The position numbers and the translations under genes were made by a program. The notes under the pieces were generated by a model. The model was given only the letters and a program-made list of their open reading frames with translations. It made no database searches and was not told where the DNA came from. Positions 28,001-44,765 of a stretch of DNA of 64,000 nucleotides are shown here, in pieces. Numbering within the stretch: position 1 is the stretch's first letter; each line of letters opens with the position of its first letter. The DNA comes from Pseudomonadota bacterium (GTDB lineage: Bacteria > Desulfobacterota > Desulfobacteria > Desulfobacterales > JAHIVH01): the NCBI GenBank assembly GCA_018816735.1, contig JAHIVH010000107.1, forward strand, positions 2,044-66,043, written 5' to 3'.

Positions 28001-30145
28001 ATGAGATCAGCGTATCACGCACGGGTCATTTTTCTTTTAATATTTATATTTTCGGTTTTTGTAAATCAGGAACTGCTTGCTGCACCGAAAATAATATTGG
28101 AACGGGGAATAAGCAGTTATCCATTGGGGGCAGGCCTGGCGTATCTGGAAGATAAAAATGGCGATTTGGCCATAGCGGATGTGGATACACCGGAGATGGC
28201 GGAAAGTTTTGTCAGGAATGAGACCGGGGTGATCAATTTTGGATTTACGTCTTCTGTTTACTGGATAAAATTCAATGTTGAAAATGAAAATCCTGAAGTC
28301 AAAAACTGGTTAATAGAGATAGGGTATCCTCATCTGGATTCATTGAAATTCTTTTTTCCAGATGGGAATGGGGGGTATCATATTAAAAAATCAGGAGATC
28401 TGCTGCCATTCACCGAAAGGGAAATCAATCACAGACTGTTTCTTTTTAAGCTTCACATTGAAACCGGGCAAAGTCAGGAAGTATTTTTAAGGGTCAAGAC
28501 ACAAAGCTCCTTTCAGGTACCGCTGACCATATGGGAACCGATAAAATTTTCCGAGAAAGTGTACAGGGAGGAGCTGGGCTACGGGATCTATTATGGCATC
28601 ATGATTGTCATGGTCCTGTATAACCTCTTTTTGTTTTTCAGCATCCGGGATAAAGCCACCTTATATTACGTGCTCTATATCGGCACATTCGGGTTTGGCA
28701 TCATGTCTTTAAATGGTGTGACAGCACAATATCTCTGGTATAACTTGCCGGTATTTGCAAACAAGATCCTTCTGGTAAGTCTTTATCTTGCCATGTCCAT
28801 GCTATGCCTGTTCAGCAGGACATACCTGAATACAAAGCAAAATGCCCCCCGCCTTGATAAAAGTATCGTTTTTCTGATGATTTTCGGGTTTGCCGGTTCA
28901 GTATTATCCTTATTTATCAAATACGAGCTGGGGGTTAAAATGGTGGCTCTCTTTGGTGTAAGCTGCCCCATTCCCACCTTCATCGCAGGTATTGTCTGCT
29001 GGCGAAAAGGAATTGCCGCAGCCAGATATTATCTGATTGCCTGGATATTCCTTTTACTGGGGATTTTCGTATTGGCCCTTAGAAATTTTGGTGTGCTCCC
29101 AAGCATCTTTTTTACGGAATATGCGGTTCAAATCGGTTCAGCCATGGAAGTGATCCTGCTTTCACTGGGTCTTGCAGACAGAATCAATATTATGAAAAAG
29201 GAGCGGTTTCTTGCCCAGCAGGAAGCACTTTCGGCTCAGGAAAAAATGCTGAAACAGCTTCAGGAGATGGACAGGCTGAAAGATGAGATGAACAGAAACT
29301 TGGAGGACAAGGTTCGGGAACGCACAGAAGAACTCAGCCAGGCCATGCAAGAAACGGAAAAGATAAACCGTCAGTTGACAGAGACCACCGAGGCGCTCTG
29401 GGGAGAAATGGAACTGGCGAAACGGATTCAGACGATTCTTTTGCCCAAGAATCCTGAAATACCGGGATATGAGATCTCTGTTTTTATGGAACCGGCCGAA
29501 GAAGTCGGTGGGGATTATTATGATATCATTCATTCCCATGGAAAAAACTGGATCGTCATAGGCGATGTGTCCGGCCATGGCGTACCAGCAGGATTGATCA
29601 TGATGATGGTTCAGACGGCCATTCACGTGACAGTCAGTCAGAATCCGGATCTTGAACCGTCAAAACTCCTTTCGATCATCAATCAAACAATTACCAAAAA
29701 TATCCAGATGATGGGTGACGATAAATACATGACGATCACCGTAATGGCCGCATACGAAGACGGACATTTCGTTTTTTCCGGTCTGCATCAGGATATCCTG
29801 ATCTACCGTAACCAGGACCGCGAGATTGAAGTGATTGAAACAAACGGTCTCTGGTTGGGTGTTGCTGAAGATATTCGCGGTTTTTTAAAAGACGAGCAGT
29901 TTGAGCTGGATCAGGATGATATGGTTCTCGTGTTTACAGATGGGCTGACCGAGTCTTGGGAAAAAGGGGTCGATCCGGAAAAGAGATCCCCTGATATAAA
30001 CATGTTTGGCCAGGACAGACTCAAACAAGCGCTAAAAGAATTGGGGGATGTGTCCACCGACCACGTTCTGAGGGGGATTATTGCAACGCTGAAAGCCTAT
30101 GAAACCACCGATGACATCACAATGGTGGCCTTGAAGCGGCTTTAG
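28001..30145 (+). CDS. 7TMR-DISM receptor (extracellular DISMED2 + 7TM) fused to a PP2C/SpoIIE phosphatase
   Basis: Signal peptide; 'FGFTSSVYWIKFNVEN' and 'FLRVKTQSSFQVPLTIW'. Seven hydrophobic segments, then a coiled coil. SpoIIE motifs 'GGDYYDII', 'GDVSGHGVPAGLIMMM', 'FTDGLTE' and 'DDITMVALKRL'. Confidence 0.85.
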   Translation: MRSAYHARVIFLLIFIFSVFVNQELLAAPKIILERGISSYPLGAGLAYLEDKNGDLAIADVDTPEMAESFVRNETGVINFGFTSSVYWIKFNVENENPEVKNWLIEIGYPHLDSLKFFFPDGNGGYHIKKSGDLLPFTEREINHRLFLFKLHIETGQSQEVFLRVKTQSSFQVPLTIWEPIKFSEKVYREELGYGIYYGIMIVMVLYNLFLFFSIRDKATLYYVLYIGTFGFGIMSLNGVTAQYLWYNLPVFANKILLVSLYLAMSMLCLFSRTYLNTKQNAPRLDKSIVFLMIFGFAGSVLSLFIKYELGVKMVALFGVSCPIPTFIAGIVCWRKGIAAARYYLIAWIFLLLGIFVLALRNFGVLPSIFFTEYAVQIGSAMEVILLSLGLADRINIMKKERFLAQQEALSAQEKMLKQLQEMDRLKDEMNRNLEDKVRERTEELSQAMQETEKINRQLTETTEALWGEMELAKRIQTILLPKNPEIPGYEISVFMEPAEEVGGDYYDIIHSHGKNWIVIGDVSGHGVPAGLIMMMVQTAIHVTVSQNPDLEPSKLLSIINQTITKNIQMMGDDKYMTITVMAAYEDGHFVFSGLHQDILIYRNQDREIEVIETNGLWLGVAEDIRGFLKDEQFELDQDDMVLVFTDGLTESWEKGVDPEKRSPDINMFGQDRLKQALKELGDVSTDHVLRGIIATLKAYETTDDITMVALKRL

Positions 30146-30154
30146 GCGACAGCA

Positions 30155-30976
30155 TCAAGGCTCACAGAGAAGCTGTCGTATTCTTTCGCTTAAAAACATG
30201 ATGGATTCGATATCCAGATGTTCGGTAATCGTTTCGTCAAAGGAGAGTTTCACTTCTGCCTCGATTCCCTCCTCTGTGGCTTTATCCCAGAACATCAGCC
30301 TTACTGGCACTTTGGGAAGTGGCTGAAATAACACAGCCACATCTGCGGAATCAATGTTGTCCCCTATATCCTGTCCACCAATGGCCAGGGCTTTTTCAAG
30401 AAGGGCACGCGTGTGCCCCCTGAATTTTTCGATCAACGGTGTTTCCACATGGGCAATCATCGATTTCATTTTGGATACGGTATTTGGAAATTCCACCAAT
30501 CCTTTCCAGTTACCTGCAGGCAGTCTTCTGCCACCCTGAGCCACATGGTTGTATAGAAATACCTTTTCCCACCGGGTCAGCGCCTCTCCATTTTTTTTCA
30601 CCATGCCATCTTTTGAAATCAACACGGCATCGTTAAAGTAACGCAGTTCAAGATGCATGTCCCCGTTTTTTTCCACGAGCATCCCGCCTATTCGTTCCGG
30701 CAGATCCTTTATATCTGTTGAAGCTGCCTTTTCTTTTGCCCATTTCAGAGCATCCTGGGCCATATCCTTCTTGAGCCATTTCCCTTCAGCATATTGCGCT
30801 TCCAGTTCAACCGTGCATCGATTGAGTGTTTCCTTGTCAAGATGGGGACAGTTGGCAAGCGGGTATTTTTCAGACACGACCATGCTTGCAAATGCCATAC
30901 ATGTGGAAAATCCACAATCCCTGCAATTTGTTTTTGGAAGAACATCTCTATACAGATCCACAACTGAAAGCGCCAT
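30155..30976 (-). CDS. DUF3786-family protein with an N-terminal putative Fe-S binding motif
   Basis: 'LPKTNCRDCGFSTCMAFASMVVSEKYPLANCPHL', a CO-dehydrogenase/ACS-type FeS motif, is followed by a DUF3786-like body. Confidence 0.65.
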   Translation of the reverse strand: MALSVVDLYRDVLPKTNCRDCGFSTCMAFASMVVSEKYPLANCPHLDKETLNRCTVELEAQYAEGKWLKKDMAQDALKWAKEKAASTDIKDLPERIGGMLVEKNGDMHLELRYFNDAVLISKDGMVKKNGEALTRWEKVFLYNHVAQGGRRLPAGNWKGLVEFPNTVSKMKSMIAHVETPLIEKFRGHTRALLEKALAIGGQDIGDNIDSADVAVLFQPLPKVPVRLMFWDKATEEGIEAEVKLSFDETITEHLDIESIMFLSERIRQLLCEP

Positions 30977-31004
30977 TTCGATGAATCCCTTTGTCTATAA
31001 AAGT

Positions 31005-31190
31005 TTATGCTTTGCCGTCAAGATGGCATGCGGACGTGTCCAGCTTCTTGCCGCAGGCCGTGCATGTGTGTTTTTTGTTTAACTCATCACTGAAAATTTC
31101 GTTTTCCTTGCCGCATGACGGGCATTTGCATGAAAGGGTTTGGACACTCTTGTTCAGTTCGTTTCCCGGACATCTTGCTGTGGTTGTCAT
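31005..31190 (-). CDS. Small zinc-ribbon protein (61 aa)
   Basis: 'CKCPSCGKE...TCTACGKK' gives two CxxC pairs. ATG at 31190 lies 8 nt after GGAGG; the ORF-track start at 31205 contains that RBS. The gene is 28 nt upstream of the DUF3786 gene on the same strand. Confidence 0.55.
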   Translation of the reverse strand: MTTTARCPGNELNKSVQTLSCKCPSCGKENEIFSDELNKKHTCTACGKKLDTSACHLDGKA

Positions 31191-31688
31191 GGCGTTTACC
31201 TCCATTTTTTATGATTTAAGTTAACTGCTTTTCAAATATCTTTGACAAACAGGTTAATCAAGTTCCATGCCAGATTCAAACAATAGTTTCATGCCCTTTT
31301 TAGGAGATGTGATGATCGGGTGGAATTAAAACCAATTGCCGGGCATTTTCAGACTATTTGAATGATACGTTGTGCTTAAGATGTTGCACTTTGGTCAATG
31401 ATCAGCATGACGGTTCGATAATGATAGTATTCCTTTTCTTGAGACAGACCTGTCTCATTTACTATCAAATACCTGCCCCTGAAATCAATGCTTTTGTTGT
31501 AAAAAAGGATTTGATGTTTTTTTTGGGTAATGACATATTAGACATCGGAAAATGGGTATATTCTTTTACAAATTGTCAATTCCAATCTTGTCGGACAAAT
31601 GTTTAATCCCATTATGGATAACAATCAGTTACATAGCAATACGCTCATAAATCTTATAAATTCCAGTTTGTAAAAGGTAACCGTTACC

Positions 31689-34600
31689 ATGGCTCAGGCA
31701 AAAAAATTCGGTACGTTTGCTGGCGTGTTCACGCCGTCTATTTTGACGATTCTAGGCGTGATCATGTATTTGAGGCTCCCCTGGATTGTAGGGCAGGCAG
31801 GCCTTTATATGACCATAGGTATCATTCTTGTGGCCCATGTGATTTCTGTCACCACCGGAATGAGTGTTTCATCCATTGCCACAGACAAACGGGTAAAAGC
31901 AGGCGGCACATATTATATGATTTCGCGAAGCTTGGGGCTTCCTATCGGGGGAACACTGGGCCTGGCCCTTTTTGTGGGGCTTTCATTTTCCGTCAGCCTG
32001 TATCTGATCGGTTTTTCAGAGAGCCTGCTGGGCTTTTTTAACATGGAAATCACCAAAAACACCATTCGGATAGCCGGAACGATTGCCCTTGTCTGCGTGA
32101 CAACGATCACATTAATCAGTACCAGCCTGGCCATTAAAACCCAGTTTCTGATTATGGCAGCCATTCTGGTGTCTTTGGGGTCGATTTTTTTGGGAAACCA
32201 CGAGTACTCGCCGACAGCCCCTCTTTTATTGCCTCTTAAAGACAGTGCCCCCTTTATTGTCTTGTTTGGCATATTCTTTCCTGCAGTGACCGGATTTGAG
32301 TCAGGGGTTTCCATGTCCGGTGATCTTAAAGATCCTAAAAAATCGATTCTTCTTGGCACGATTATAGCGATTGTCGTGGGGCTTTTCGTATATTTGGGGC
32401 TGGCTTTTTATTTTGCATTCAGCGTGAATTCTGACCAGTTGACCGGGAATTCAAAAGTGCTTCTTGATATTTCCCTGAACCCCCATCTCGTGGTGGCTGG
32501 CATCTGGGGGGCGACCATCTCATCCGCATTAGGAAGCATTTTAGGTGCACCAAGAATCCTTCAGGCAACAAGCCATGACCATATTACGCCCGGTTTTTTT
32601 GGTGTGGGATACGGAAAAGAAAATGAACCCAGAAATGCACTTCTATTGACCTTTGTCATTGCAGAAGCCGGTATTTTGATTGGTGAACTGGATGTGATCG
32701 CCCGCGTCGTTTCCATGTTTTTTATCACGACCTATGGATTTTTAAATTTGAGCTGTGCGGCTGAGAGCTGGGCAAGTCCGGATTTCAGACCTGAGTTTAA
32801 AACGCCAAAAACCGTCAGTATCATAGGCTCTGTCACTTGCTTCATCGTTATGGTTGAGCTTGATATTCTGGCCATGATCGGTGCGACTATCATTCTTCTT
32901 AGCGTTTTTTTCTATTTAAAGCGAAAGGAACTGACCCTTGAAACCGGCGATACATGGGAGGGCATTTGGTCATCCATGATTCGAAGCGGGCTTCATCGTT
33001 TAAACCAGCGGGAGACGCATCAACGGAACTGGCGTCCCAATATTATCCTGTTCAGCGGGGGAACGAGCGCCCGCCCCCATCTCATAGAAACAGGGAAATG
33101 GCTTGTGGATAAACGGGGACTTTTATCTAACTTTGATCTCAACGAAAACCCTGACCTGAATGTCCTTTTCAGAAAAACAGACCAGAGTATCAGAGATGAT
33201 GTTGATGATGGCATATTTGCCAGACGGATCGAATGCAGTGACAAATTCGAATGCATGGAGACAATTTCAAAATATTATGGATTTTCCGGCATCGAACCCA
33301 ATACGGTCCTGATTGGCTGGGGGCATAATACAGAGAAACCGGACAAATTCCTGAAGGTCTTAACAAGTGTAATCAGTCTTGACCTGAATCTGATGCTGTT
33401 AAACTATGTGGATGGAAGAGGATTTGGCAACCATGAAACCATTGACGTATGGTGGCGAGGATCAGGAAACAATATCAGCCTCGCGCTTGCCTTGATCCGT
33501 TTTTTAACCGCATCCCAGACCTGGCAAGATGTGACGATCCGTTTTCTTACGGTGACCGAAGAGAGTGCCTCTGTTGACCGATTGTTTGATGAAATGAACA
33601 AACTCCTTTTGGACTACCGGTTGGAAGGGGTCGTAAAAATCATCAACAACGCGGCTGAAAAGAAACCATTTGCGGAAATTTTGGCAAGAGAATCAGGAAA
33701 AGCTGACCTGGTGGTCATAGGTATTCCAGATATTCATATTGAGGCGCCCGCAAATTATATCAACAAAGTCAACACGATTATCGATCCTCTGGGAACGGCC
33801 CTTCTTATTTATGCGTCGTCATTTTTTGAACCGGTTCATATGTCGGACACCGTGTCATATGCACTATCACCTAAAATGGTGCCGGAAGATACAGGCAAGG
33901 ATGCTGCGATTTACACGCTTGCAATCCCTTCAGCCGTTAATGACGTCCCTTCAGGCCTCAAGCCGGTTGTCCTGAAATTGTTTAACAAGCTTCAGGAAAT
34001 CGGCCAGAAAGTGGATCAGTCTTGCGTTGCGGTGATTTTGAATCATCACCAGGGGTTGTCAAATACAATTCATGATCTGATGCAGGGAAGTTTTACGACT
34101 CTGGAAAAAAAGCTTTCCGCGAACGAGAAACAGAGAAATCATCGGTTGATCCTTCGTGTCCAGAGTGAGTTTTTGTTTCATGTCAGGAAGATTTTTTCCG
34201 ATTTCACAAAAGAGACACTCGCTGCTATTGAAAAAAATCTTTCAGTAAGTATTGAAAAGCTTTACGGTGAATTGCCGGGCGTGGCTTCCGGTTTCCCAAA
34301 AACAGTCATGGTAAACTGCACCATTGATGCACTCCTTTCCTGTAAGACGGAAACAGTCAAATTCTCTTTCTATAAACGTACCAAAACAGTCTTATCCCGC
34401 TTTAACAATGGCAATGTGCGGTATCATATTCACTTCAGAGAAATCATAGATAACGCACTAAAAAGCAATATGGCGCCATCTTTCAGGGGACTTTATACGG
34501 CGCTTGCTATCAATAATTATCTTCTGATAAGGGATTTGAACCGGTTTATCGATATGTTCATGGATATGCTTCGGAATATAGAAAACAGGCAACTGACAGA

Positions 34601-36848
34601 TCCTTTGTTTTTGTCTGACATGATACGCCCCGAAAAGGAGAAGATCGCCGAAGAATTCAAAAAAATTGAGAGTTCATTTAATAGTGATTTTAAAAATATA
34701 TCAGATGTGTTCATGAGTTCTCCCTGGGTGCTGGTCAGTGCCTTGTCAGATGAACTGAAACAGCCGGACATTGGTTTTAAAAAGTCAACCATCTTTAAGG
34801 GGAAGGTTAAATGGATATCCTTTTTTGAAAAAGAGCTTTTTCCCGTACCGTCCGCATGGTCTGAAAACATGACACACGCACTCAATTTCACGTCGTTGGA
34901 CTTGACTCTCCTTTCTTTTCAGAATCGTCTGCGGACGATTATTGAGCGTGCAAAAGTCAACTACAAACTGATCGTTCAGAATCATTACCGGGAAAAACTA
35001 AACGGGTTTCAAAAGTGTCTTCAAACCTATCTTGAAGAAAGTCAGGATGCGTCATGCGATAAGCTGAAAATTCCTTATACATTCAAGGAAACCGTGGATG
35101 TCCGGTCTACTTTTGAATCCATGAAAACAGAAATTCATGCGGCGATCATTGATTTGCCTGAAAGCATGGATGTGCTTGACTATGATCAGATCGGAAGGAT
35201 TTCAGAAAAACCGTTTGATCCACTGGAAACGCGAATTCTTTCTTTGCAGCAGTTGATCGAATACCTGATCGAAACAGAATTATTAAGCCCTCTTGAGGAC
35301 AAAACAGCAGATATTTTCGGATTGATGACACATGCCAACACTACCGGGATGGAAGTCGTGCGCCTGATTACACTTCATCAAAAAGAGATGGAAGGTTTAA
35401 GTGGCGCCACAGAATCTCAATCCTTGGACAACTTTAAATCTGTTTTAAAAATGGGCGTCGAGCGTATCCAGGACGAACATCGCGTTTTTGAAACCATGGA
35501 TCAAAATCTTTCAGACGATTTTACGAAATTTTCGAATAGCGTATTTGAACGTCTGAACCCTTCCTCAATCGCAAAAGATGTGGAAACATTGCCCCATTAC
35601 TTTCGAAAGCTGCAAAGTGCCAAGGTAATGACCCACTTTGAAACGGTGAGGGCATCCACTCTGGCCCGGGTGAATGAATTGAATATCCGCTTTCTCTATT
35701 ACAGGCACAAGAAGCATCTTGAAAAAATCGAGATTGACAACAGGCCGCTTCAGTTTGATTTATTTGAGAAGCTCCTTGACTTTGTGGAATCTGTGTCGCC
35801 GGACAGAAGTGCGTTAAATGCCATTCCCTTTTATTACAGGCACCTTTTTCTTGGAAAACCACCCGTGACCAAAGAGTTCTGGCTGGGCCGGAAAAAAGAG
35901 ATTGCCCAGGCTGAAAAAACGGTTCTGAGATACCGGAATATGTATAAAGGGGCGCTGATGATAGTCGGAGAGAGTTTCTCCGGAAAGACAGCCCTGTCAC
36001 AATATATTGCGTCCAAGTATTTCGCCGGCAGGAACATCTATCAGATTAACCCTCCGGATGAAGGGTCTATTGACCCGTTTGTATTCAATATTCATTTGAG
36101 AGACGCGTTTCAGGATGCCGGAGATGTGGCAGACAATTTTTCTGCACTGGAAAATGAGAGCGTCATTATTTTTAACGATTGCGAACTCTGGTGGGAGAGA
36201 AGCACGCGCGGTTTTGCGGTGATTGATCGTATCCTTGGTATTATCGATCAGTATAGTCATCGTTTTTTCTTCATTTTAAACGCGAATGTATGCGCATACC
36301 GGTATATGAGCCGGATAAATAAAAAATTCAAAAATTATTTTCTGGATATTCTGAATTGTTCTCCTTTTGATGTGGAAACCATGAAGCAGGTTATTCTTCT
36401 GAGGCACCGGTCTACCGGTCTTAAATTCAGCTGGTTGGAAAAGGACGAGGAGATGCTGACCGATCTGAAGATGGTCCGGTTTTTTATCTTTCTTTCTAAA
36501 AGAAGTGGGGGAAATATAGGTGTTGCGCTTCAAAACTGGATATGGTGCATCGAAAAGGTCACCCGGGAAAGAATTGTGATTGATATCAAGCCAGAGCCTG
36601 ACATTGGCATTTTCAGAAACATGGAGCCTGTTCATCTCGTTCTTCTGGGGCAGTTTCATATCCACAAACGGTTAAGCCTGATGCGATTGATCCGGGTGAC
36701 AAAAATGGTGCCGGAAGAATTGGCGCATCATATAAGAACACTGAAAAGATGCGGCCTCCTTGTTGAAACCGTTGCCAATATCTTTGAAATCAATTCATTT
36801 GTAAAACCTTATCTGGCAGACTATCTGGAAGACAGGGGGATTTTATGA
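31689..36848 (+). CDS. 1,719-aa fusion of an SLC12/cation-chloride-cotransporter-like permease and its cytoplasmic domain with a ~1,000-aa extension ending in a STAND/AAA_16-like P-loop NTPase and a probable winged helix
   Basis: One uninterrupted ORF. 'FGTFAGVFTPSILTILGVIMYLRLPWIVGQAG' and 'AGGTYYMISRSLGLPIGG' are SLC12 hallmarks. 'NWRPNIILFSG' and 'IDVWWRGSGNNISLALALIRFL' match the SLC12 C-terminal domain. 'FWLGRKKEIAQAE...MIVGESFSGKTAL' includes a Walker A at nt 35967-35990, and 'VIIFNDCE' (36162-36185) is Walker B-like. Confidence 0.8.
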   Translation: MAQAKKFGTFAGVFTPSILTILGVIMYLRLPWIVGQAGLYMTIGIILVAHVISVTTGMSVSSIATDKRVKAGGTYYMISRSLGLPIGGTLGLALFVGLSFSVSLYLIGFSESLLGFFNMEITKNTIRIAGTIALVCVTTITLISTSLAIKTQFLIMAAILVSLGSIFLGNHEYSPTAPLLLPLKDSAPFIVLFGIFFPAVTGFESGVSMSGDLKDPKKSILLGTIIAIVVGLFVYLGLAFYFAFSVNSDQLTGNSKVLLDISLNPHLVVAGIWGATISSALGSILGAPRILQATSHDHITPGFFGVGYGKENEPRNALLLTFVIAEAGILIGELDVIARVVSMFFITTYGFLNLSCAAESWASPDFRPEFKTPKTVSIIGSVTCFIVMVELDILAMIGATIILLSVFFYLKRKELTLETGDTWEGIWSSMIRSGLHRLNQRETHQRNWRPNIILFSGGTSARPHLIETGKWLVDKRGLLSNFDLNENPDLNVLFRKTDQSIRDDVDDGIFARRIECSDKFECMETISKYYGFSGIEPNTVLIGWGHNTEKPDKFLKVLTSVISLDLNLMLLNYVDGRGFGNHETIDVWWRGSGNNISLALALIRFLTASQTWQDVTIRFLTVTEESASVDRLFDEMNKLLLDYRLEGVVKIINNAAEKKPFAEILARESGKADLVVIGIPDIHIEAPANYINKVNTIIDPLGTALLIYASSFFEPVHMSDTVSYALSPKMVPEDTGKDAAIYTLAIPSAVNDVPSGLKPVVLKLFNKLQEIGQKVDQSCVAVILNHHQGLSNTIHDLMQGSFTTLEKKLSANEKQRNHRLILRVQSEFLFHVRKIFSDFTKETLAAIEKNLSVSIEKLYGELPGVASGFPKTVMVNCTIDALLSCKTETVKFSFYKRTKTVLSRFNNGNVRYHIHFREIIDNALKSNMAPSFRGLYTALAINNYLLIRDLNRFIDMFMDMLRNIENRQLTDPLFLSDMIRPEKEKIAEEFKKIESSFNSDFKNISDVFMSSPWVLVSALSDELKQPDIGFKKSTIFKGKVKWISFFEKELFPVPSAWSENMTHALNFTSLDLTLLSFQNRLRTIIERAKVNYKLIVQNHYREKLNGFQKCLQTYLEESQDASCDKLKIPYTFKETVDVRSTFESMKTEIHAAIIDLPESMDVLDYDQIGRISEKPFDPLETRILSLQQLIEYLIETELLSPLEDKTADIFGLMTHANTTGMEVVRLITLHQKEMEGLSGATESQSLDNFKSVLKMGVERIQDEHRVFETMDQNLSDDFTKFSNSVFERLNPSSIAKDVETLPHYFRKLQSAKVMTHFETVRASTLARVNELNIRFLYYRHKKHLEKIEIDNRPLQFDLFEKLLDFVESVSPDRSALNAIPFYYRHLFLGKPPVTKEFWLGRKKEIAQAEKTVLRYRNMYKGALMIVGESFSGKTALSQYIASKYFAGRNIYQINPPDEGSIDPFVFNIHLRDAFQDAGDVADNFSALENESVIIFNDCELWWERSTRGFAVIDRILGIIDQYSHRFFFILNANVCAYRYMSRINKKFKNYFLDILNCSPFDVETMKQVILLRHRSTGLKFSWLEKDEEMLTDLKMVRFFIFLSKRSGGNIGVALQNWIWCIEKVTRERIVIDIKPEPDIGIFRNMEPVHLVLLGQFHIHKRLSLMRLIRVTKMVPEELAHHIRTLKRCGLLVETVANIFEINSFVKPYLADYLEDRGIL

Positions 36849-36905
36849 AGACCGTATTTCTATATGGCAGGCGTTTTTTTTATATACTCGAAGGCGGAGG
36901 GACGT

Positions 36906-37508
36906 ATGAAAGATAGGAACCGGTTTTCGGGTTTTTTAAGGTTCACAATATGCGTCTTCTTCCTGGCGTTATCCGTTTATCTGTTGTCCGGTAAGTATTC
37001 GGGCCATGTCCTGGCTCTATTTGCCGTGTTTGCGGTCATTCTGGTTGCCGGAGGGTGGTCTTCCATGAGGGATGTGCTTGCCGGGATTTTCCTGAGAATT
37101 GAAAACCAGATCTCGGTGGGTGACTATATCCTTTTGAACAATCTGTCAGGACGGGTTCAGCTTTTAGGGTTGAGATGCCTTTCTCTTAAAAAGGATGATG
37201 GGCCGTATGTATTTGTTCCGTATTCGACTGTCGCAAAGGAAATCGTGACACGTCTTCCTCCATCAGAGCAGACGGATCCGTATACATTTTCACTGGTCGT
37301 TCCCAAAATTGCCAAACCCGGGGCCATGAGGGAAATTATCCGGAAAGCGGCACTTAACCTGATATGGGTGTCTTTAAAAACTGATCCCCGCATTCAGTTT
37401 CTGGAAGAAAAAGAGGATGGCTTTTTATTTGAAGTGACCGTGTATCCGGTCATCTCAGAATATGGCGCGCGTATAGAAGACTTCCTTAAAGCCGAGCTGG
37501 CCGCTTGA
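36906..37508 (+). CDS. Minimal MscS-like mechanosensitive-channel-family protein (200 aa)
   Basis: Two hydrophobic helices, then 'DVLAGIFLRIENQISVGDYILLNNLSGRVQLLGLRCLSLKKDDGPYVFVPYSTVAKEIV', which is the pore helix plus beta-domain pattern. ATG at 36906 follows GGAGGG. Confidence 0.65.
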   Translation: MKDRNRFSGFLRFTICVFFLALSVYLLSGKYSGHVLALFAVFAVILVAGGWSSMRDVLAGIFLRIENQISVGDYILLNNLSGRVQLLGLRCLSLKKDDGPYVFVPYSTVAKEIVTRLPPSEQTDPYTFSLVVPKIAKPGAMREIIRKAALNLIWVSLKTDPRIQFLEEKEDGFLFEVTVYPVISEYGARIEDFLKAELAA

Positions 37509-37734: not shown

Positions 37735-37763
37735 TTGACAGAGATTCATTCGGTCTATATTAT
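37735..37763 (+). promoter_or_regulatory. Candidate sigma-70 promoter of the tetR-efflux operon
   Basis: TTGACA (37735-37740), a 17-nt spacer, then TATTAT (37758-37763). It lies 53 nt upstream of the tetR ATG. Confidence 0.6.
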
Positions 37764-37815: not shown

Positions 37816-38430
37816 ATGGATCAGAAACAGGATAAATTGAACCAGATACTCGAGGCGGCAACGATTGTCTTTGCCGAATCCGGTTATGCCGGGGCAAGAA
37901 TGGATATGATCGCCGAAAGGGCAGGGGTGAACAAGGCGACCATTTATTATAATATTGGCAACAAAGAAAAACTGTATGAAAAAGTGCTCCAGTCCATATT
38001 TGGAAATGAACTCTCAAATACTGAAGAAAAAATGAGAAGCATATCCTCTCCAGTAGAGAAGCTTGAACTGTATATCACAAGCATTGCCGAGGCTATAGAC
38101 AGAAATCCGGCGATCCCAAATATCGTCATGTGGGAGCATGCCTCAGGTGGCATGAGCCTGCCTGAAATTATCGCACAAGAAATTGCAGGAATGATTGAAA
38201 ATCTGGCACTGATACTGGATGCAGGCGAGAAACAGGGGCTCTTTAAAAAAATAAACCCCATGCTGGTGCAATTTATGATCATTCCGGCCTTGATGTTTTA
38301 TAAAACAAGTTCCCCCATAAGAGATAAACACCATGCATTTCCGGAAATAGCCAGGAACCTGCCTTTGGCGGTTTCCGGAAAATTTGCAAATGAAATGGTC
38401 AGATTTATTCTGGAAGGTCTTAAAAAATGA
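37816..38430 (+). CDS. TetR/AcrR-family transcriptional regulator
   Basis: 'ILEAATIVFAESGYAGARMDMIAERAGVNKATIYYNIGNKEKLYEKVL' is the TetR_N HTH. Confidence 0.9.
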   Translation: MDQKQDKLNQILEAATIVFAESGYAGARMDMIAERAGVNKATIYYNIGNKEKLYEKVLQSIFGNELSNTEEKMRSISSPVEKLELYITSIAEAIDRNPAIPNIVMWEHASGGMSLPEIIAQEIAGMIENLALILDAGEKQGLFKKINPMLVQFMIIPALMFYKTSSPIRDKHHAFPEIARNLPLAVSGKFANEMVRFILEGLKK

Positions 38431-38475
38431 GAGAAACGAAATCAAAAGAGAATGAGTTTTAGAGAGGGATCGATT

Positions 38476-39888
38476 ATGAAATGGATTCAGTTTTTAATGG
38501 ACAGAAGACGTATTATAAGTGCGATTGTCTGGGCATTTGCAATTATCATTCCTTTAAGCGGGTATCAAAAACAGGCATTTTCAGAAGAGAACGCCCTTTC
38601 CTTAAATGATTGCCTTGATATTGCCTTTAAACACAATCAGGATATTGAAGGTGCCCGACTCATGAAAAATGAAGCCGGCTCCAAACTGGCCCAGGCAAAA
38701 TCAAAAAGGTTTCCTGAAGTGAAAGCAGAGGCAAGCGCCGGTTACATTTCGGAACTGAATCGAATCGGGCTTGGTGACATGACGGTTGACATACCGGGAC
38801 TTTCAACGGTTACCATACCTGGAAGAGAAATGGAAATGGGCGAAAATGAGAAAGCAGACCTTGCGCTTTCCCTGATTCAGCCGATTTATACCGGAGGCCG
38901 GATTGAAAGTGGCATAAAGATGGCGCAGGCAGGTTTTGAAATTGCCTGTCATCAGATATCTTTGGAAGAAAACAGGATCAGAAATGAAGTAACAACCCTC
39001 TTTTATCAGCTTGCCAAGTCCGTGGAATACAAAAAAGTGACGATAATGAGCCGTGATCAGATCGAAAGACATCTTAAAGACGCCAAAAACATGGTGGATC
39101 AGGGAATGCTTCTTCAAAGTGATATTTACCCGATAGATATCAGACGGCTTGATACGGAGCTGATGATTGTGAAAGCAGACAATGCCATATCACGGGCAAA
39201 AGCTGCTCTTTCCGAGCGGCTGGGCTTTCCGCCGGAAAAAGAGCTGGCCATTTTGGTTGACTGGGGCCTTGTCCCGCCATGGCCGATTCCTGAAAACCTG
39301 ATCCGAAAAAGTGGAGACAGGCAAGAGCAGCGTATCGCAAGAAAACAAATCGAGGTCGCCTCGGCTGAGATTGATATGGCCAAAGGTGCATTAAAACCGG
39401 AAGTCGGTTTTATGGCCTCCGGGCATTATGGATATCCGGGGTTCAATACCACGGACCCGGACTGGGATACATGGTGGCAGGCAGGTGTGAATGTCTCTTT
39501 CACTATTTTTGATATGGACAGAAAAAGAAAGGAAAGAGAGGCGGCTGTGATAAAAAAAGCGCGTTTTGAAAAGATGAAGGAATCCGTGGACCACAAGATT
39601 TCGCTGGATCAGATCAATGCGAGGCTTGCCTATGAGGAATCCTATCGAAATATGAAGATTACCCGTGAAAAGGTTCTGGCTGCTGAAGAAAATTACAGGC
39701 TGAAAAACGATAATTTTAAAGTGGGCATGACGACCAACACCGATTTTCTGGATGCCCATATGGAGCTTGTAAAAGCCCAGGCAGACCAGGTGGTGGTGTC
39801 TGCTGAAATGAGGATTGCATGGTCTGAATTTTTACGAGCCATGGGAGAAGAAAACTGGACTGCTAAATCAGAAAGAGGAGAAAATTAA
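38476..39888 (+). CDS. TolC-family outer-membrane efflux protein
   Basis: Signal peptide; 'LSLNDCLDIAFKHNQDIEGARL'. Two OEP repeats with 'LDAHMELVKAQADQV'. ATG at 38476 follows GAGGGA. Confidence 0.85.
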   Translation: MKWIQFLMDRRRIISAIVWAFAIIIPLSGYQKQAFSEENALSLNDCLDIAFKHNQDIEGARLMKNEAGSKLAQAKSKRFPEVKAEASAGYISELNRIGLGDMTVDIPGLSTVTIPGREMEMGENEKADLALSLIQPIYTGGRIESGIKMAQAGFEIACHQISLEENRIRNEVTTLFYQLAKSVEYKKVTIMSRDQIERHLKDAKNMVDQGMLLQSDIYPIDIRRLDTELMIVKADNAISRAKAALSERLGFPPEKELAILVDWGLVPPWPIPENLIRKSGDRQEQRIARKQIEVASAEIDMAKGALKPEVGFMASGHYGYPGFNTTDPDWDTWWQAGVNVSFTIFDMDRKRKEREAAVIKKARFEKMKESVDHKISLDQINARLAYEESYRNMKITREKVLAAEENYRLKNDNFKVGMTTNTDFLDAHMELVKAQADQVVVSAEMRIAWSEFLRAMGEENWTAKSERGEN

Positions 39889-39889
39889 A

Positions 39890-40798
39890 ATGAAATCATT
39901 TATAGACCGTCCTGCATTTTTTCTTGTCATCATGACATTTATATTTTCAGGATGCACGGATAAGCTGCCGGAAGGGTTTGCCGGATCAGGCGTTCTTGAG
40001 GCAACAACAGTTACCATAAGTTCTTTATCCACCGGTGTTATTTTAAAACTTTTGAAAGAAGAAGGTGATCCGGTGGCCAAGAAAGAATGCCTTGCTGTCA
40101 TTGATGTGGAAAAACTGACGCTGCAGAAAGCGCAAATTGAGGCAAGCCTGAAAGAAATTGATGCAGGGAGAATCAGCGCAAAAGCAGCTATTGACCAGGC
40201 ATCGGAAAATTTTGAAAATGTGGAAACCCGGTACAAAAGAATAAAGCAACTACATGGCAAAGGTTCTGCGACTCAGCAGCAGTTTGATGATATTTCAACG
40301 CAGCTTAGCGTGGCACGGAACCAGCTGGTGGCTGCGAAATCCCAGCAACCCATACTCGACGCCAAGCAAGCCCAGGCCGAGGCCACGATTCATGTTCTGG
40401 AGAGTCAGATTGAGGATGCCACTGTCCTGTCTCCGCTTTCAGGCGTCATCGTTGAAAAATATATGGAAGAAGGTGAGGTGGCTGTTCAGGGCAGTGCATT
40501 ATATAAAATAGCGAATATGGATGTTTTCTGGATAAAAGTGTATGCGGCTGAGCAGGATATGGGACGGTTTAAGCTGGGTGAGGCAGTCTCTGTCCGGGTT
40601 GATTCGCTGGAGGCCCCCATTTCTGGAATCGTGACATGGACATCTCCGGAAGCGGAGTTTACGCCGAAAAATGTGCAGACACGACAGGCCAGGGCGGAAC
40701 TGGTCTATGCTGTAAAGATTACGTTAAGAGAACATGTGTCTGCATTAAAGATCGGTATGCCGGCAGAAGTATATTTTACGGAGCAGAAAAAGGGATGA
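39890..40798 (+). CDS. HlyD/YbhG-like periplasmic adaptor (lipoprotein)
   Basis: Lipobox 'IFSGC'. Barrel-sandwich and coiled-coil pattern; 'VLSPLSGVIVEKYMEEGEVA' and 'FTPKNVQTRQARAELVYAVKI'. The ATG lies 1 nt after the TolC stop. Confidence 0.85.
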   Translation: MKSFIDRPAFFLVIMTFIFSGCTDKLPEGFAGSGVLEATTVTISSLSTGVILKLLKEEGDPVAKKECLAVIDVEKLTLQKAQIEASLKEIDAGRISAKAAIDQASENFENVETRYKRIKQLHGKGSATQQQFDDISTQLSVARNQLVAAKSQQPILDAKQAQAEATIHVLESQIEDATVLSPLSGVIVEKYMEEGEVAVQGSALYKIANMDVFWIKVYAAEQDMGRFKLGEAVSVRVDSLEAPISGIVTWTSPEAEFTPKNVQTRQARAELVYAVKITLREHVSALKIGMPAEVYFTEQKKG

Positions 40799-41751
40799 GT
40801 GACAAGGCAATTCAGGTGACAGGTTTAAAAAAACGGTATGACAGTACTTCAGCCCTGTCGTCGGTGACATTTTCCGTGGAAAAGGGAGAAATGTTCGGGC
40901 TCATTGGTCCTGATGGCGCTGGCAAGACCACCTTGATCCGGATTTTGACCTCTCTTCTGGACCCGGATGAGGGAACGTGCCGTCTCCTTGGTATTTCCGT
41001 CCATGAAGATCCTAAAAGCATTCGAAAAATTATTGGATATATGCCCCAGCGATTTTCATTGTATCCGGACTTGACGGTAGGTGAAAATTTGAGGTTTTTT
41101 GCGGATCTGTTCAGGGTGCCACGAAAAGAAAGGTTGAAGAAAACAGAAGAACTTCTTGAATTCAGCCGTCTTGAACCTTTTGTCAAAAGACGGGCAGGGG
41201 CTCTCTCAGGTGGTATGAAACAGAAACTGGCCCTGTCATGCGCGTTGATTCATACTCCGGAAATTCTGGTTTTGGATGAACCCACAACCGGTGTGGACCC
41301 GGTATCCAGGCGCGAATTCTGGTCAATTTTAAAATCCCTTAAGAAAAGCGGGGTGAGCATCCTTATTACGACACCTTATATGGATGAGGCGGAACGCTGT
41401 GATCGCATTGCGCTGATTCATCACGGTGAAATTCTTGCCATGGGAACGGCAAGAAGTGTGATCGATCAATTTTCAGGTTCTATTTTTTCTGTATCCGGTC
41501 CTGATCTGTTGGGGCTTTCAAGATGGTTCAAAAGGCAGCTGCGATCCGATCAGGTGAGAATTCTGGGAGACAGGGTTCAGCTCAATCTGTTTTCTTCAAC
41601 AGAAAAAAATGTATCTGATCTGGTGAAAGATGCAAAAGCGTCCGGACAGGTTATTGATGCGTTTGGCAGAGAAAATCCGGAACTTGAGGATACATTTATC
41701 ACATTGATCGCAGAAAGGGAAAAACGAAATGACCAGACCATCTCCTCCTGA
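40795..41751 (+). CDS. ABC transporter ATP-binding protein (first of two)
   Basis: ATGA overlap with the adaptor stop. Walker A 'GPDGAGKTT', signature 'LSGGMKQKL', Walker B 'LVLDEPTTGVD'. Confidence 0.9.
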   Translation: MSDKAIQVTGLKKRYDSTSALSSVTFSVEKGEMFGLIGPDGAGKTTLIRILTSLLDPDEGTCRLLGISVHEDPKSIRKIIGYMPQRFSLYPDLTVGENLRFFADLFRVPRKERLKKTEELLEFSRLEPFVKRRAGALSGGMKQKLALSCALIHTPEILVLDEPTTGVDPVSRREFWSILKSLKKSGVSILITTPYMDEAERCDRIALIHHGEILAMGTARSVIDQFSGSIFSVSGPDLLGLSRWFKRQLRSDQVRILGDRVQLNLFSSTEKNVSDLVKDAKASGQVIDAFGRENPELEDTFITLIAEREKRNDQTISS

Positions 41752-42496
41752 TCCGTCCGTTGATCTCACAAAGAACGGACTTGCCGTAACCGTCAGGAAC
41801 CTTTCCCGCCGTTTTGGTGAATTTGTGGCTGTGGATGACATTTCATTTGATGTGAAAAAAGGAGAAATTTTCGGATTTCTGGGTGCAAACGGTGCGGGCA
41901 AGACAACCACCATCAGAATGCTTACAGGGCTTTTGGAACCGTCGTCAGGTGAAGGGCAGGTCGGTGGGTTTGATATCCATAAGGATTATGAGAAAATTAA
42001 AACGCGTATCGGATACATGTCCCAGAAATTTTCCCTGTATGACGATCTGAAGGTAGTGGAAAATCTTTATTTTTTCGGAGGGATTTATGGCCTGAGCAGG
42101 GAACATATCCGGATGCGTGTGGCAGAACTGGATCAGTCCCTGAACCTGTTGGCGGTAGCGGACAGAAAAACCATGTCTTTGCCCTTGGGGTTCAAACAGC
42201 GCCTGGCCCTGGCATGTGCCATTCTTCATAAACCGCCTATTTTGTTTCTTGATGAGCCCACAGGCGGTGTGGATCCGATTGCCAGAAGATACTTCTGGGA
42301 TCTGATTTCCACCCTGGCTGGAGACGGCACAACGGTTTTTGTCACCACCCATTACATGGATGAGGCCGAGTATTGTCACCGGCTTTCGATCATGTATAAA
42401 GGCAAGATCATCGAGATGGATTCCCCTTCAGCCATCAAGAAAAAATATAACAGCGTCTCCATTGAGGACATTTTTATCAAACTGGTAGACAGGTAG
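41729..42496 (+). CDS. ABC transporter ATP-binding protein (second of two)
   Basis: Walker A 'GANGAGKTTT', a degenerate signature 'LPLGFKQRL', Walker B 'LFLDEPTGGVD'. It overlaps the upstream gene by 23 nt. Confidence 0.9.
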   Translation: MTRPSPPDPSVDLTKNGLAVTVRNLSRRFGEFVAVDDISFDVKKGEIFGFLGANGAGKTTTIRMLTGLLEPSSGEGQVGGFDIHKDYEKIKTRIGYMSQKFSLYDDLKVVENLYFFGGIYGLSREHIRMRVAELDQSLNLLAVADRKTMSLPLGFKQRLALACAILHKPPILFLDEPTGGVDPIARRYFWDLISTLAGDGTTVFVTTHYMDEAEYCHRLSIMYKGKIIEMDSPSAIKKKYNSVSIEDIFIKLVDR

Positions 42497-42514
42497 AAGA
42501 AAGGAAAACCTTTA

Positions 42515-43624
42515 ATGATCAATACAAGGATTCTTCCCCTTATCAGAAAAGAATTCATCCATATCAGAAGGGATCCGCGATCGCTTGTGATTCTTCTATT
42601 GATGCCTTTAATCATGATGTTTATTTTCGGATACGCCATCAATATGGATCTTAAACATATTCGAATCGGCATATGTGATTTAAACAGAACACCTTCAAGC
42701 AGGGAATTGATTGAAACGATTCGAATGAGCCCCTATTTTGAAATTGTGACATATTATAATAACCCGAACAGAACCGAAGCCCTTTTTACGAAGCGTCTGG
42801 TCAGAGCAGTTATTATCATTCCGGCTGATTTCGGTAAAAGCCATGCCCGTTCCAGATTTGCGAATATTGGCGTAATTACAGATGGAACAGATGCCAATAG
42901 CGCCACTCTTGTCCAGAATTATCTGGATGGACTTTTTATGGGGAAATCGATTTCTTCTGCAACAAACGGAAGTGGCCCGCTGGTTTCAGTCAAATCCCGG
43001 ATGCTCTACAATCCGGATATGACATCATCCCACTTTGTCGTACCCGGTATTGTGGCGATTCTTTTGATTATGATTGGTGCCCTTTTGACTTCGGTTACCA
43101 TTGCCCGTGAAAAGGAAACCGGAACCATGGAGCAGATCCTGGTGAGCCCCATAAGGCCCTACGAGGTCGTGCTGGGAAAAGCCATACCTTACCTTGTACT
43201 GTCATTTACCATTGCGGTTTTTATTCTTGTGTTCGGCCACCTGTGGTTCAAGGTTCCCATGCTGGGCAAATGGGGATTTCTCCTTCTTTTTTGCGTATTT
43301 TACGTGTTTACGGCACTTGCCATAGGACTTCTTATTTCAACGGTTGTGGCCACACAACAGGTGGCCATGATGCTGTCTTTGGTCATTACCATGCTGCCTT
43401 CCGTGATGCTCTCGGGATTTGTTTTTCCGGTGGCATCCATGCCAAGACCCTTGCAGGTGGTGTCCCAGATTATTCCGGCCACCCATTTCTTAAAAATTAT
43501 CCGTGGCGTGATGCTGAAAGGAAACGGTCCCCTTGAACTTTGGCCATCAGTTGCGGCAATGAGTGCTGTGGGGCTGTTTTTTATCTTGCTTGCGGTCAGA
43601 CGGTTTAAACTGAAGCTCAAGTGA
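42515..43624 (+). CDS. ABC-2 type permease (YbhS/YbhR-like)
   Basis: 'LIRKEFIHIRRDPRSL', a large periplasmic loop, then 'REKETGTMEQILVSPIRPYEVVLGK' and 5 further TM segments. Confidence 0.85.
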   Translation: MINTRILPLIRKEFIHIRRDPRSLVILLLMPLIMMFIFGYAINMDLKHIRIGICDLNRTPSSRELIETIRMSPYFEIVTYYNNPNRTEALFTKRLVRAVIIIPADFGKSHARSRFANIGVITDGTDANSATLVQNYLDGLFMGKSISSATNGSGPLVSVKSRMLYNPDMTSSHFVVPGIVAILLIMIGALLTSVTIAREKETGTMEQILVSPIRPYEVVLGKAIPYLVLSFTIAVFILVFGHLWFKVPMLGKWGFLLLFCVFYVFTALAIGLLISTVVATQQVAMMLSLVITMLPSVMLSGFVFPVASMPRPLQVVSQIIPATHFLKIIRGVMLKGNGPLELWPSVAAMSAVGLFFILLAVRRFKLKLK

Positions 43625-43634
43625 ATCGGGGGGG

Positions 43635-44765
43635 ATGATGGGAAAAGTATTTCATCTGGTGAAAAAGGAATTGAAGCAGGTTATGCGAGATCCCAACATG
43701 CTCAGGGTCATTTTTATTGTTCCTATGATTCAGCTGCTTGTTTTGGGATATGCCATTACAACGGATATTAAAAATCTGAATATTCTGATTTGTGATTTTG
43801 ACAGATCCGAAATCAGCCGGGATCTGGTTGACCGGTTTTCTCACACCGAGTATTTCACCCTGAAAGAATACGCTGCAAGCCATGGAAATATTGAGTCATA
43901 TCTTTTCAGGGGAAAGGTAGTGCTGGCCCTGGTTATTCCTGAAAATTTCGGAAAGGATCTGGAAACCTTAAAACAGCCTGAGGTCCAGGTGCTTTTAGAT
44001 GGCCAGAATTCCAATACCAGTGCGGTGGCTCTTGGATACGCAAACCGGATTTTTTTGCAGTTCATGCAGGATACGCTTGAGAAAAAAATCGCCAGATCGC
44101 CATATCTGGCCAGATCTGTTCATTTTATCGAACCGGTCACAAGAACCTGGTATAACCCTGAACTGAAAAGCGTCTATTACATGATACCGGGAATCATATC
44201 GATTCTCCTTACGATTATCACCATGCTGTTAACGAGTCTTGCCATTGTCAAGGAACGGGAGATCGGTACCCTGGAACAGCTCATGGTAACGCCGATTACC
44301 TCAGGTCAGATTATTGCCGGAAAGACCATTCCTTTTGCCTGTCTGGGATTTATTGAGATGAGTGTGGCCATGACATTTGGCGTATTGTGGTTCAAGATTC
44401 CTATCGTGGGCAGTCTGCCACTATTAGTATTTCTCGCCGCTACATTTATTCTGGCCACGTTAGGCCTTGGTATTTTTATTTCAACGTTGGTGAACACCCA
44501 GCAACAGGCGCTTTTTATGTCCTGGTCTTTTCTGGTCACATTTATTCTGCTAAGCGGCTTTTTTTATCCCATTGAAAACATGCCTGAATGGGTCAAAACG
44601 ATTACCTTGTTCAATCCATTAAGGTATTTTATTGAGATTTTAAGGGAACTTTTTCTGAAAGGCGCAGGAATAAATGTCCTGTGGCCGGAACTCGCCTCGC
44701 TTCTGACAATCGGTGTGAGTATATTTATACTGGCAACCCTTCGTTTTCACAAGAGGAACACCTGA
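43635..44765 (+). CDS. ABC-2 type permease (YbhS/YbhR-like), paralogue of the preceding gene
   Basis: 'LVKKELKQVMRDPNML' and 'REREIGTLEQLMVTPITSGQIIAGK', with the same architecture as 42515-43624. Confidence 0.85.
   Translation: MMGKVFHLVKKELKQVMRDPNMLRVIFIVPMIQLLVLGYAITTDIKNLNILICDFDRSEISRDLVDRFSHTEYFTLKEYAASHGNIESYLFRGKVVLALVIPENFGKDLETLKQPEVQVLLDGQNSNTSAVALGYANRIFLQFMQDTLEKKIARSPYLARSVHFIEPVTRTWYNPELKSVYYMIPGIISILLTIITMLLTSLAIVKEREIGTLEQLMVTPITSGQIIAGKTIPFACLGFIEMSVAMTFGVLWFKIPIVGSLPLLVFLAATFILATLGLGIFISTLVNTQQQALFMSWSFLVTFILLSGFFYPIENMPEWVKTITLFNPLRYFIEILRELFLKGAGINVLWPELASLLTIGVSIFILATLRFHKRNT

Follow-up and report, generated by a model that had tools for sequence, protein, structure and literature searches.

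Why should a bacterial gene for a cation-chloride cotransporter (CCC) of the SLC12 family run on for about 1,000 further residues, end in a nucleoside triphosphatase (NTPase), and be followed on the same strand by a gene for a small MscS-like membrane protein? The question is raised by a 64,000-nt stretch of contig JAHIVH010000107.1 (hereafter the window), from a Pseudomonadota bacterium of the Desulfobacterales, in which a giant gene occupies 31689..36848 (+) and the MscS-like gene ends at 37508. A first-pass annotation, made from the letters of the window alone, had suggested either a nucleotide-switch-regulated ion transporter working with a mechanosensitive-type channel or a STAND-type switch with an ion transporter as its effector. 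The analysis reported here indicates that this bacterial gene pair is real, widespread and apparently undescribed. Residue numbers throughout are those of the window's 1719-aa protein.

The giant gene, its family and its domains

The giant gene encodes, in order, a CCC permease, an SLC12 cytoplasmic C-terminal domain (CTD), a helical region termed MID, an AAA+ NTPase and a winged helix. Its 5,160 nt had been described as one uninterrupted open reading frame (ORF), and the ORF listing of the window agrees: translation starts at an ATG, runs for 1719 aa and meets no in-frame stop within 31689..36848. The motifs quoted in the first-pass annotation were all located in the translation at the residues and nucleotides assigned to them. 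The sequence VIMYLRLPWIVGQAG stands at aa 24-38, AGGTYYMISRSLG at aa 71-83 and NWRPNIILFSG at aa 447-457, IDVWWRGSGNN starts at aa 585, and the protein terminates in LMRLIRVTKMVPEELAHHIRTLKRCGLLVE. In a hydropathy scan all of the transmembrane (TM)-like hydrophobic segments lie before aa 413. We infer that the protein beyond this point is cytoplasmic, because the C-terminus of CCCs is, by analogy, cytoplasmic.

A scan of one genome per species in GTDB, with matches confirmed by tblastn, gave 367 confirmed stretches of the giant-protein family, and 80 loci were fetched. The transmembrane domain (TMD), CTD, MID and NTPase lie in a single ORF of 1,672-1,833 aa in 63 of the 80 loci, and the residue counts given below as n/63 refer to these full-length colinear ORFs; the shorter cases are mostly contig-end fragments or split reading frames. 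An exhaustive HMMER profile search returned 2,726 clusters at 50% identity with E ≤ 1e-3, 1,839 with E ≤ 1e-10 and 666 with E ≤ 1e-30, and lengths near 1,700 aa are in the majority among the top 150 representatives. An architecture first read from one window thus has abundant full-length counterparts. Its apparent rarity in word-index protein searches, which gave 3, 4 and 5 matches for the extension, for a three-sequence profile of it and for the profile of the second subfamily, was overturned by the 2,726 HMMER clusters. Short representatives were considered as stand-alone proteins and rejected; most hold remnants of the CCC CTD or have no start methionine, and are therefore fragments. A ClpB-like protein (L084), the sole return of a metagenome-contig scan with a two-sequence alignment, proved unrelated. 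Among 159 retrieved sequences 112 carry CCC domains, and the CCC fusion therefore dominates; the shorter of the retrieved sequences are mostly N-terminal truncations.

The 80 loci come from Marinimicrobia, Calditrichia, Gemmatimonadota, Myxococcota, many orders of Bacteroidota, Ignavibacteria/Chlorobiota, Rhodothermia and Leptospiraceae, and include one from a cultured strain, Rapidithrix thailandica JCM 23209. The closest species-level relative of the window protein is 44% identical to it. Judged by this distribution, the permease-NTPase fusion is both real and old. Within the protein, the permease is the part best conserved across the family and MID the least, while the NTPase module is again better conserved than MID.

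Residues 1-455 (31689..33053, +) form the SLC12/CCC transmembrane permease of LeuT/APC fold, delimited with AA_permease, TIGR00930, the NKCC1/KCC structures and hydropathy. The permease scores 159 bits against Pfam AA_permease (PF00324; E 1.8e-46, cut-off 24.6) and 397.9 bits against NCBIfam TIGR00930, 'K-Cl cotransporter' (E 1e-118), the latter being under the model's full-length cut-off of 953 bits. In a phmmer search against the PDB, the KCC4 and NKCC1 cryo-EM chains match the window protein with E 1e-74 to 1e-76. Residue-level alignment to the human NKCC1 structures (NKCC1/KCC matches E 1e-37 to 1e-76) shows that Y75, P198, T201, S278, S279 and Y349 coincide with their human counterparts, and these six residues, together with T20, I21 and G23-I25, are identical in 63/63 family members. 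We take Y75 (the Tyr of TM3) and P198/T201 (the Pro/Thr of TM6) to be K+-site positions, S278/S279 to be the Ser-Ser pair of TM8 at the Na+ site, and Y349 to be the TM10 Tyr of the Cl- site. The SLC12/CCC hallmarks noticed in this part of the protein are therefore borne out by the AA_permease, TIGR00930 and KCC/NKCC structure matches, by which the permease is a bona fide member of the SLC12/CCC family (TC 2.A.30).

The permease is followed, as had been surmised, by the SLC12 cytoplasmic CTD (aa 456-714; 33054..33830, +), which was delimited with the alignments to KCC structures and the KCC CTD crystal chains. The phmmer alignments to KCC chains reach as far as aa 653-703, and the crystal chains 6vw9/6vwa match this domain with E 8e-4. 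Pfam SLC12 (PF03522) matches it weakly (E 0.0017; 17.9 bits, cut-off 27). The CTD was recovered in all family members, with E 1e-28 to 1e-99.

MID spans aa 715-1365 (33831..35783, +). It is all-alpha with no TM segment, as defined from model helices and from homology across the architectures described below. The first-pass annotation had seen here a long helical sequence without a recognisable motif, and this impression holds: scans of the Pfam and NCBIfam model libraries gave no match to these ~650 residues, and a Foldseek search of the PDB, with a low-confidence model as the query, gave none at E ≤ 0.001. That AlphaFold2 (AF2) model, built from three sequences, consists of helices of about 50 residues with a predicted local distance difference test (pLDDT) score of 55.8. 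When MID was compared with itself by hhalign, aa 789-1024 aligned with aa 1076-1290 (probability 75%, E 2.5e-5), and MID may thus be an internal tandem duplication of a unit of ~230 residues. For the extension formed by MID and the NTPase module, neither Pfam nor NCBIfam offers a covering model, and aa 720-1719 are not a known, annotated domain set. The sequence profile of the extension gives only P-loop-level matches against the PDB.

The NTPase module (aa 1366-1719) opens with the motif LPFYYxxLF, found in family alignments and present in the window as IPFYYRHLF (aa 1379-1387; 35823..35849, +). This is the most conserved element in the extension: P1380, Y1383, L1386 and F1387 are identical in 63/63, and the motif residues stay invariant when the non-CCC subfamily is included in the alignment. 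FW[VI]G comes next, and then Walker A and Walker B. Walker A (GESFSGKT, aa 1427-1434; 35967..35990, +) has G1427 and G1432 in 63/63, K1433 as Lys in 58 and Arg in 5, and Thr or Ser at position 1434 in 63/63. The Walker B strand (VIIFNDCE, aa 1492-1499; 36162..36185, +) was placed by the family alignment and strand 143-146 of the model, and is followed by LWWER; D1497 is conserved in 58/63, E1499 in 57/63 and W1502 in 63/63. R1504 and R1572-H1573 are also conserved and are candidate arginine finger or sensor residues.

The alpha/beta base and helical lid of the AAA+ domain (aa 1397-1638; 35877..36602, +) were delimited with AF2, Foldseek and AAA_16. In a Pfam survey of the module from 21 family members, with matches counted at E ≤ 0.01, AAA_16 matched 18/21 (best 1.5e-11), nSTAND3 9/21 (best 6.6e-7) and ATPase_2 6/21, with weak nSTAND1 and NACHT similarities also seen among the members; the window protein itself gives 14.4 bits against AAA_16 (cut-off 32.6). 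The AF2 model of the module (pLDDT 79; predicted template modelling score 0.77) shows the alpha/beta base, the helical lid and the winged helix. Its best Foldseek matches in the PDB are archaeal Orc1/Cdc6 proteins (2qby, 5.8e-8; 1w5t, 2v1u and 1fnn), followed by RFC subunits and the Arch_ATPase PAB2304 (2qen, 1.4e-6), with Apaf-1 lower at 1.8e-5; the TM-scores for 2qby, 1w5t, 2v1u and 2qen are ~0.4-0.5. The assignment to AAA_16, Arch_ATPase or STAND NTPases that had been made by eye is consistent with both the survey and the model, which identify the module as a STAND-like AAA+ domain of predicted AAA_16, Orc1/Cdc6-like type; it may be a STAND NTPase proper or belong to the ORC clade of AAA+ proteins.

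The C-terminal winged helix (aa 1639-1719; 36603..36845, +), likewise suspected from the letters, appears in the AF2 model as a helix-turn-helix followed by a beta hairpin. Chains of ArsR/MarR-type winged helix-turn-helix proteins weakly match the family profile over its last ~65 residues (2d1h, 0.001; 1uly, 0.02; 4mnu, 0.03). His1659 (36663-36665) is conserved in 63/63 and invariant in both the CCC and the non-CCC subfamilies; it is the sole invariant residue of the winged helix. Sixty residues follow His1659 before the chain stops at aa 1719, and there is no C-terminal sensor or repeat domain.

The MscS-like partner and the module in other architectures

The gene downstream of the giant gene encodes an MscS-like protein with TM3b, a beta domain and an alpha-beta domain. 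Two starts can be read: ATG 36906, which gives 200 aa (36906..37508, +), and 36864, which gives 214 aa. The 200-aa form is favoured because a GGAGG Shine-Dalgarno sequence stands immediately 5' of ATG 36906, 57 nt past the stop of the giant gene. The product scores 44 bits against Pfam MS_channel_2nd (PF00924; E 2.4e-11, cut-off 20.2) and reaches 1e-10, far under cut-off, against the NCBIfam MscS models. The same-strand MscS-like gene of 200 aa reported in the first-pass annotation is therefore upheld. Its description as 'minimal' is not: the family consensus is 245 aa long, with three TM helices, TM3b, a beta domain and an alpha-beta-like domain, and the window copy is a shortened form in which TM1 is missing and two TM helices are left.

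At the junction of the two genes (36845..36905, +), the overlapping start that is usual in the family survives as a relic: ATG 36845 forms ATGA with the stop codon of the giant gene, is out of frame with the partner and closes after 23 codons. A run of eight T lies at 36873-36880, between this ATG and ATG 36906. The start region of the window partner could owe its form to a frameshift or a small deletion, or else to an indel introduced by sequencing. Overlapping-start homologues of the partner carry an extra N-terminal TM helix.

Linkage to the MscS-like gene is not peculiar to the window. With a hidden Markov model of the partner, a homologue was detected immediately downstream and in the same orientation in 70/80 loci, and no more than 1.4 kb away in 2 others; the conservation of this neighbour (72/80) answers the question that the first-pass annotation had raised about it. 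The partner start overlaps the stop of the giant gene (ATGA, -3) in 36/69 loci and lies within 12 nt of it in 58/69, which suggests that the partner is usually translationally coupled to the giant gene. The MscS-like gene is the only widely conserved neighbour.

The MID+NTPase module also occurs apart from CCC permeases. In locus L003, the CCC is replaced by a Na+/H+ exchanger domain in a 1506-aa protein (P0004). By hhalign, the NTPase module of P0004 is homologous to that of the giant protein (probability 99.1), and its helical region to MID (probability 96.4, E 1e-9). The gene lies in an array (4760-14052 of that locus) consisting of a Na+/H+ exchanger, the P0004 fusion, a 346-aa MS_channel_2nd protein, TrkH and TrkA. 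In locus L019 (13203-17740, -), the gene for a 1056-aa transporter-less MID+NTPase protein (AAA_16 7.5e-7; MID homology probability 86 by hhalign) is followed immediately by that for a canonical MscS homologue of 394 aa, and this pair is convergent with, and adjacent to, the CCC-fusion pair of the same genome. The partners in L003 and L019 also match PF00924. The link between module and MscS gene, as read from these loci, holds in three architectures (CCC, Na+/H+ exchanger and free-standing), with one example each of the two non-CCC forms. By the same homologies, the MID+NTPase module is independent of any single transporter type.

One of four database homologues listed with a source field bears a name, 'amino acid permease'. 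In the full-text literature searched, with subscription journals outside its coverage, no CCC-AAA+ fusion and no MscS-associated NTPase is described; the candidate papers touch on CCCs only incidentally. We could not find a description of the combination of parts, of the conserved 650-residue MID, of the LPFYYxxLF and LWWER motifs, or of the MscS linkage, and all four are apparently undescribed.

Predicted function and alternatives

The domain identities, together with the conservation of the transport-site and nucleotide-binding residues, of the fusion and of the partner gene, point to a nucleotide-switch-regulated Na-K-Cl cotransporter that would serve osmotic and ion homeostasis together with an MscS-type channel. 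To this reading, which was one of the two first proposed, we give about an even chance; the substrate, the nucleotide dependence, the physical coupling and the physiological role are what we infer in it. The locus would be a two-gene unit for ion and volume homeostasis. Its first gene would supply a secondary Na+/K+/Cl- cotransporter whose CTD continues into a helical arm of ~650 residues and ends in the NTPase and winged helix, and its second gene a compact membrane protein of MscS fold, usually co-translated with the first. The terminal NTPase is envisaged as a slow nucleotide switch, in which the ATP or ADP state would alter conformation or oligomerisation. This state would be relayed through the helical arm to the CTD of the CCC, gating or tuning salt uptake, and the NTPase module might also touch the cytoplasmic part of the MscS-like partner. 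Uptake of solute by the cotransporter and its release by the channel could in this way be coordinated under osmotic or ionic stress.

Several observations weigh against this reading. The residue following the Walker B Asp is Cys or Leu, not the usual catalytic Glu, and a Glu stands one position further on; hydrolysis may therefore be slow or absent, and the NTPase resembles a switch more closely than a motor. The MID model is of low confidence, and the relay of a signal along the arm is conjectural. The pore helix of E. coli MscS is rich in Gly and Ala, whereas TM3a in the consensus of the partner family is rich in Leu, and channel activity is therefore not assured; the window copy, moreover, has lost TM1. 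Finally, the partner is missing downstream in 8/80 loci (L050, L053, L058, L060, L065, L067, L077 and L082, all metagenome-assembled genomes (MAGs) of Bacteroidales, Flavobacteriales and Chlorobiota), where unrelated genes are found instead, and the transporter can therefore exist without this partner.

Part of the same evidence could be arranged around the channel. The core of the system would then be the MID+NTPase module with the MscS-like protein, the module regulating or assembling a specialised MscS channel and not the cotransporter; an NTPase ring would perhaps dock under the heptameric channel, and the CCC or the Na+/H+ exchanger would be an optional add-on carrier. Such an arrangement would explain that the MscS-like gene accompanies the module not only in the CCC fusion but also in the exchanger fusion of L003 and beside the transporter-less protein of L019, that MID and the NTPase are homologous across all three architectures, and that overlapping start and stop codons suggest stoichiometric co-production. 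It sits less well with the dominance of the CCC fusion in the retrieved sequences, with the single recovery of each of the other two architectures, and with the eight CCC-fused loci that have no adjacent MscS-like gene. We consider it rather unlikely on balance; it is compatible with the homeostasis reading and does not exclude it.

A broader proposal takes up elements of both. The ~1,000-residue MID+NTPase module and its MscS-fold partner, with an AAA+/STAND-like ring under an MscS-type heptamer, might constitute an unrecognised but widespread nucleotide-driven complex for sensing osmotic or ionic state, which could be plugged onto cation carriers as different as a CCC and a Na+/H+ exchanger or work on its own. 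We offer this tentatively and regard it as possible though doubtful. If it were true, it would provide a new principle linking solute uptake to emergency solute release, and the first self-contained, genetically tractable model of CCC switching by cell state.

The fold of the module raises the question of whether the winged helix binds DNA. The protein would then act in membrane-tethered one-component signalling, in which the NTPase would make transcription respond to ion levels or to the state of the transporter. The closest folds are indeed those of DNA-binding initiators with the same order of AAA+ domain, lid and winged helix, and the weak ArsR/MarR-type profile matches cover the last ~65 residues. 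A winged helix after the lid is, however, also found as a structural, non-DNA-binding element in AAA_16 and STAND cores; the only invariant residue of the domain is a His, with no recognition-helix pattern, and the gene context shows no regulated target beyond the co-transcribed partner. We consider this signalling role very unlikely.

Very unlikely, too, in our estimation, is the second of the two original suggestions in its defence form, a STAND-type conflict or abortive-infection system in which the NTPase would sense an invader and oligomerise, and the transporter and channel would collapse ion gradients to kill or arrest the cell. The order of parts is STAND-like, with the membrane part N-terminal and the NTPase and winged helix after it, there are the weak nSTAND3, nSTAND1 and NACHT similarities and the Apaf-1 match in the Foldseek results, and the invariant His of the winged helix recalls, as a putative counterpart, the His of the STAND MHD motif, which contacts bound ADP. 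The structural best matches, however, are Orc1/Cdc6 and RFC, not STAND proteins, and the ~60 residues that follow the invariant His leave no room for a C-terminal sensor domain. PADLOC gave no match for the giant protein or its homologues; the few similarities of P0002, P0003 and the window partner (E 0.008-0.04) are weak, scattered and confined to defence models unrelated to them. No defence genes were recognised among the Pfam-annotated neighbours, which are a TetR/TolC/HlyD/ABC-2 efflux operon, a 7TMR-DISM phosphatase and a DUF3786 gene in the window, and Trk and a Na+/H+ exchanger in L003. The ion-coordinating residues are 100% conserved across phyla, as would be expected of a working housekeeping transporter. 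The homeostasis reading thus fits the context better than a STAND switch with the transporter as a defence-type effector, because of the lack of a PADLOC match, the complete conservation of the transport-site residues, and the Trk and Na+/H+ exchanger neighbours in one related locus.

There is a negligible chance that an assembly chimera or a sequencing error produced the long ORF by joining an ordinary CCC gene to an unrelated downstream gene, and nothing in the results speaks for it. The assembly fusion that the first-pass annotation had wished to see checked is excluded, because the colinear TMD-CTD-MID-NTPase ORF recurs in 63 independent genomes and MAGs, complete chromosomes and the cultured strain among them, while the giant layout is shared by most of the top 150 cluster representatives and the G+C content along the giant gene is uniform (0.42-0.46).

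Surrounding genes and comparison with known systems

Upstream of the giant gene, Rfam found nothing in nt 30900-31800, and no riboswitch; promoter and terminator scans gave nothing above shuffled background. The top sigma-70-like match of the scanned region (11/12) is at 37735-37763, just 5' of a separate operon (37816-44765, +) that begins 308 nt past the MscS-like gene and encodes TetR, a TolC-like outer-membrane efflux protein, an HlyD-family adaptor, two ABC ATPases and two ABC-2 permeases. On the 5' side, a 714-aa membrane protein (28001-30145, +) with 7TMR-DISMED2, 7TMR-DISM_7TM and a SpoIIE-type PP2C phosphatase ends ~1.5 kb before the giant gene; no conserved linkage of this phosphatase to the giant gene was seen in other loci. 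A DUF3786/Fe-S gene (30155-30976, -) is adjoined, just upstream, by a Cys-rich, zinc-ribbon-like ORF of 66 aa (31005-31205, -) with CxxC...CxxC pairs, or 61 aa from the ATG at 31190-31192, which is preceded by GGAGG.

Farther away, a long same-strand polysaccharide-biosynthesis cluster (748-21940) has a G+C content of 0.34-0.39, compared with 0.40-0.48 in the rest of the window, and contains GT2, GT1 and GT4 glycosyltransferases, a Wzy-like ligase, an asparagine synthase, an acyltransferase_3 protein and a GNVR chain-length protein. A stand-alone AAA_22/AAA_16 ATPase of 363 aa (22230-23321, +; AAA_22 1.3e-25) lies beside an opposite-strand HisKA_3 histidine kinase; no relation of this ATPase to the giant gene was found.

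In animals, the control of cell volume and of chloride depends centrally on cation-chloride cotransporters, which are also drug targets. To our knowledge, there is still debate about how CCCs sense the state of the cell, and hardly any work exists on bacterial members. The family described here brings a complete CCC core, a predicted nucleotide switch and an MscS-type partner together in one operon, in hundreds of species from at least eight phyla. CCC regulation by a built-in switch would thereby become accessible to bacterial genetics, flux assays and cryo-EM, for instance in the cultured Rapidithrix strain. The family also defines ~650 conserved residues without a known fold, as well as a subfamily of MscS proteins whose partner looks obligate.

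Among known systems, the RCK/KTN systems (TrkAH, KtrAB and Kef) offer a functional analogy, in that a cytoplasmic nucleotide-binding module controls cation transport, and Trk genes are present in L003. The folds are unrelated, Rossmann-type in RCK and AAA+ in the giant protein, and no homology is implied. With AAA_16 and Arch_ATPase proteins (PF13191, PF01637), Orc1/Cdc6 and the STAND proteins MalT, NB-ARC and NACHT, the giant NTPase shares an F-x-G-R-type lead-in, Walker A and B, the lid and the winged helix; a non-canonical post-Walker B residue and an invariant winged-helix His are further features that look switch-like. Unlike those ATPases, it is joined to the C-terminus of a transporter through 650 residues of helices, has no sensor repeats, and possesses two invariant motifs of its own, LPFYYxxLF and LWWER.

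The partner shares with the MscS family TM3b, the beta domain (PF00924), the C-terminal alpha-beta-like domain and, at consensus, the three TM helices. It is shorter than E. coli MscS, which has 286 aa (245 aa in the consensus, 200-214 aa in the window), differs from it in the Leu-rich TM3a, and is distinguished from the MscS family by the tie of its gene to the MID+NTPase module. Stand-alone prokaryotic CCCs, such as that of Methanosarcina acetivorans, presumably end after the CTD, near aa 720; the core of permease and CTD is common to both, and the giant family adds ~1,000 residues and a dedicated partner gene.

With NKCC1, NCC and KCC1-4 the giant protein has in common the 12-TM permease of LeuT fold and the SLC12 CTD that follows it, matching the structures with E down to 1e-76. 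The aligned positions that we take to form the Na+, K+ and Cl- sites of NKCC1 are kept, the TM8 Ser-Ser pair included. In contrast to eukaryotic SLC12 proteins, it has no long N-terminal phospho-regulatory region and carries ~1,000 extra residues at its C-terminus, and its gene is bacterial and stands in an operon with an MscS-like gene. Regulation that is exerted on the eukaryotic proteins by WNK-SPAK kinases would here presumably fall to the fused nucleotide switch.

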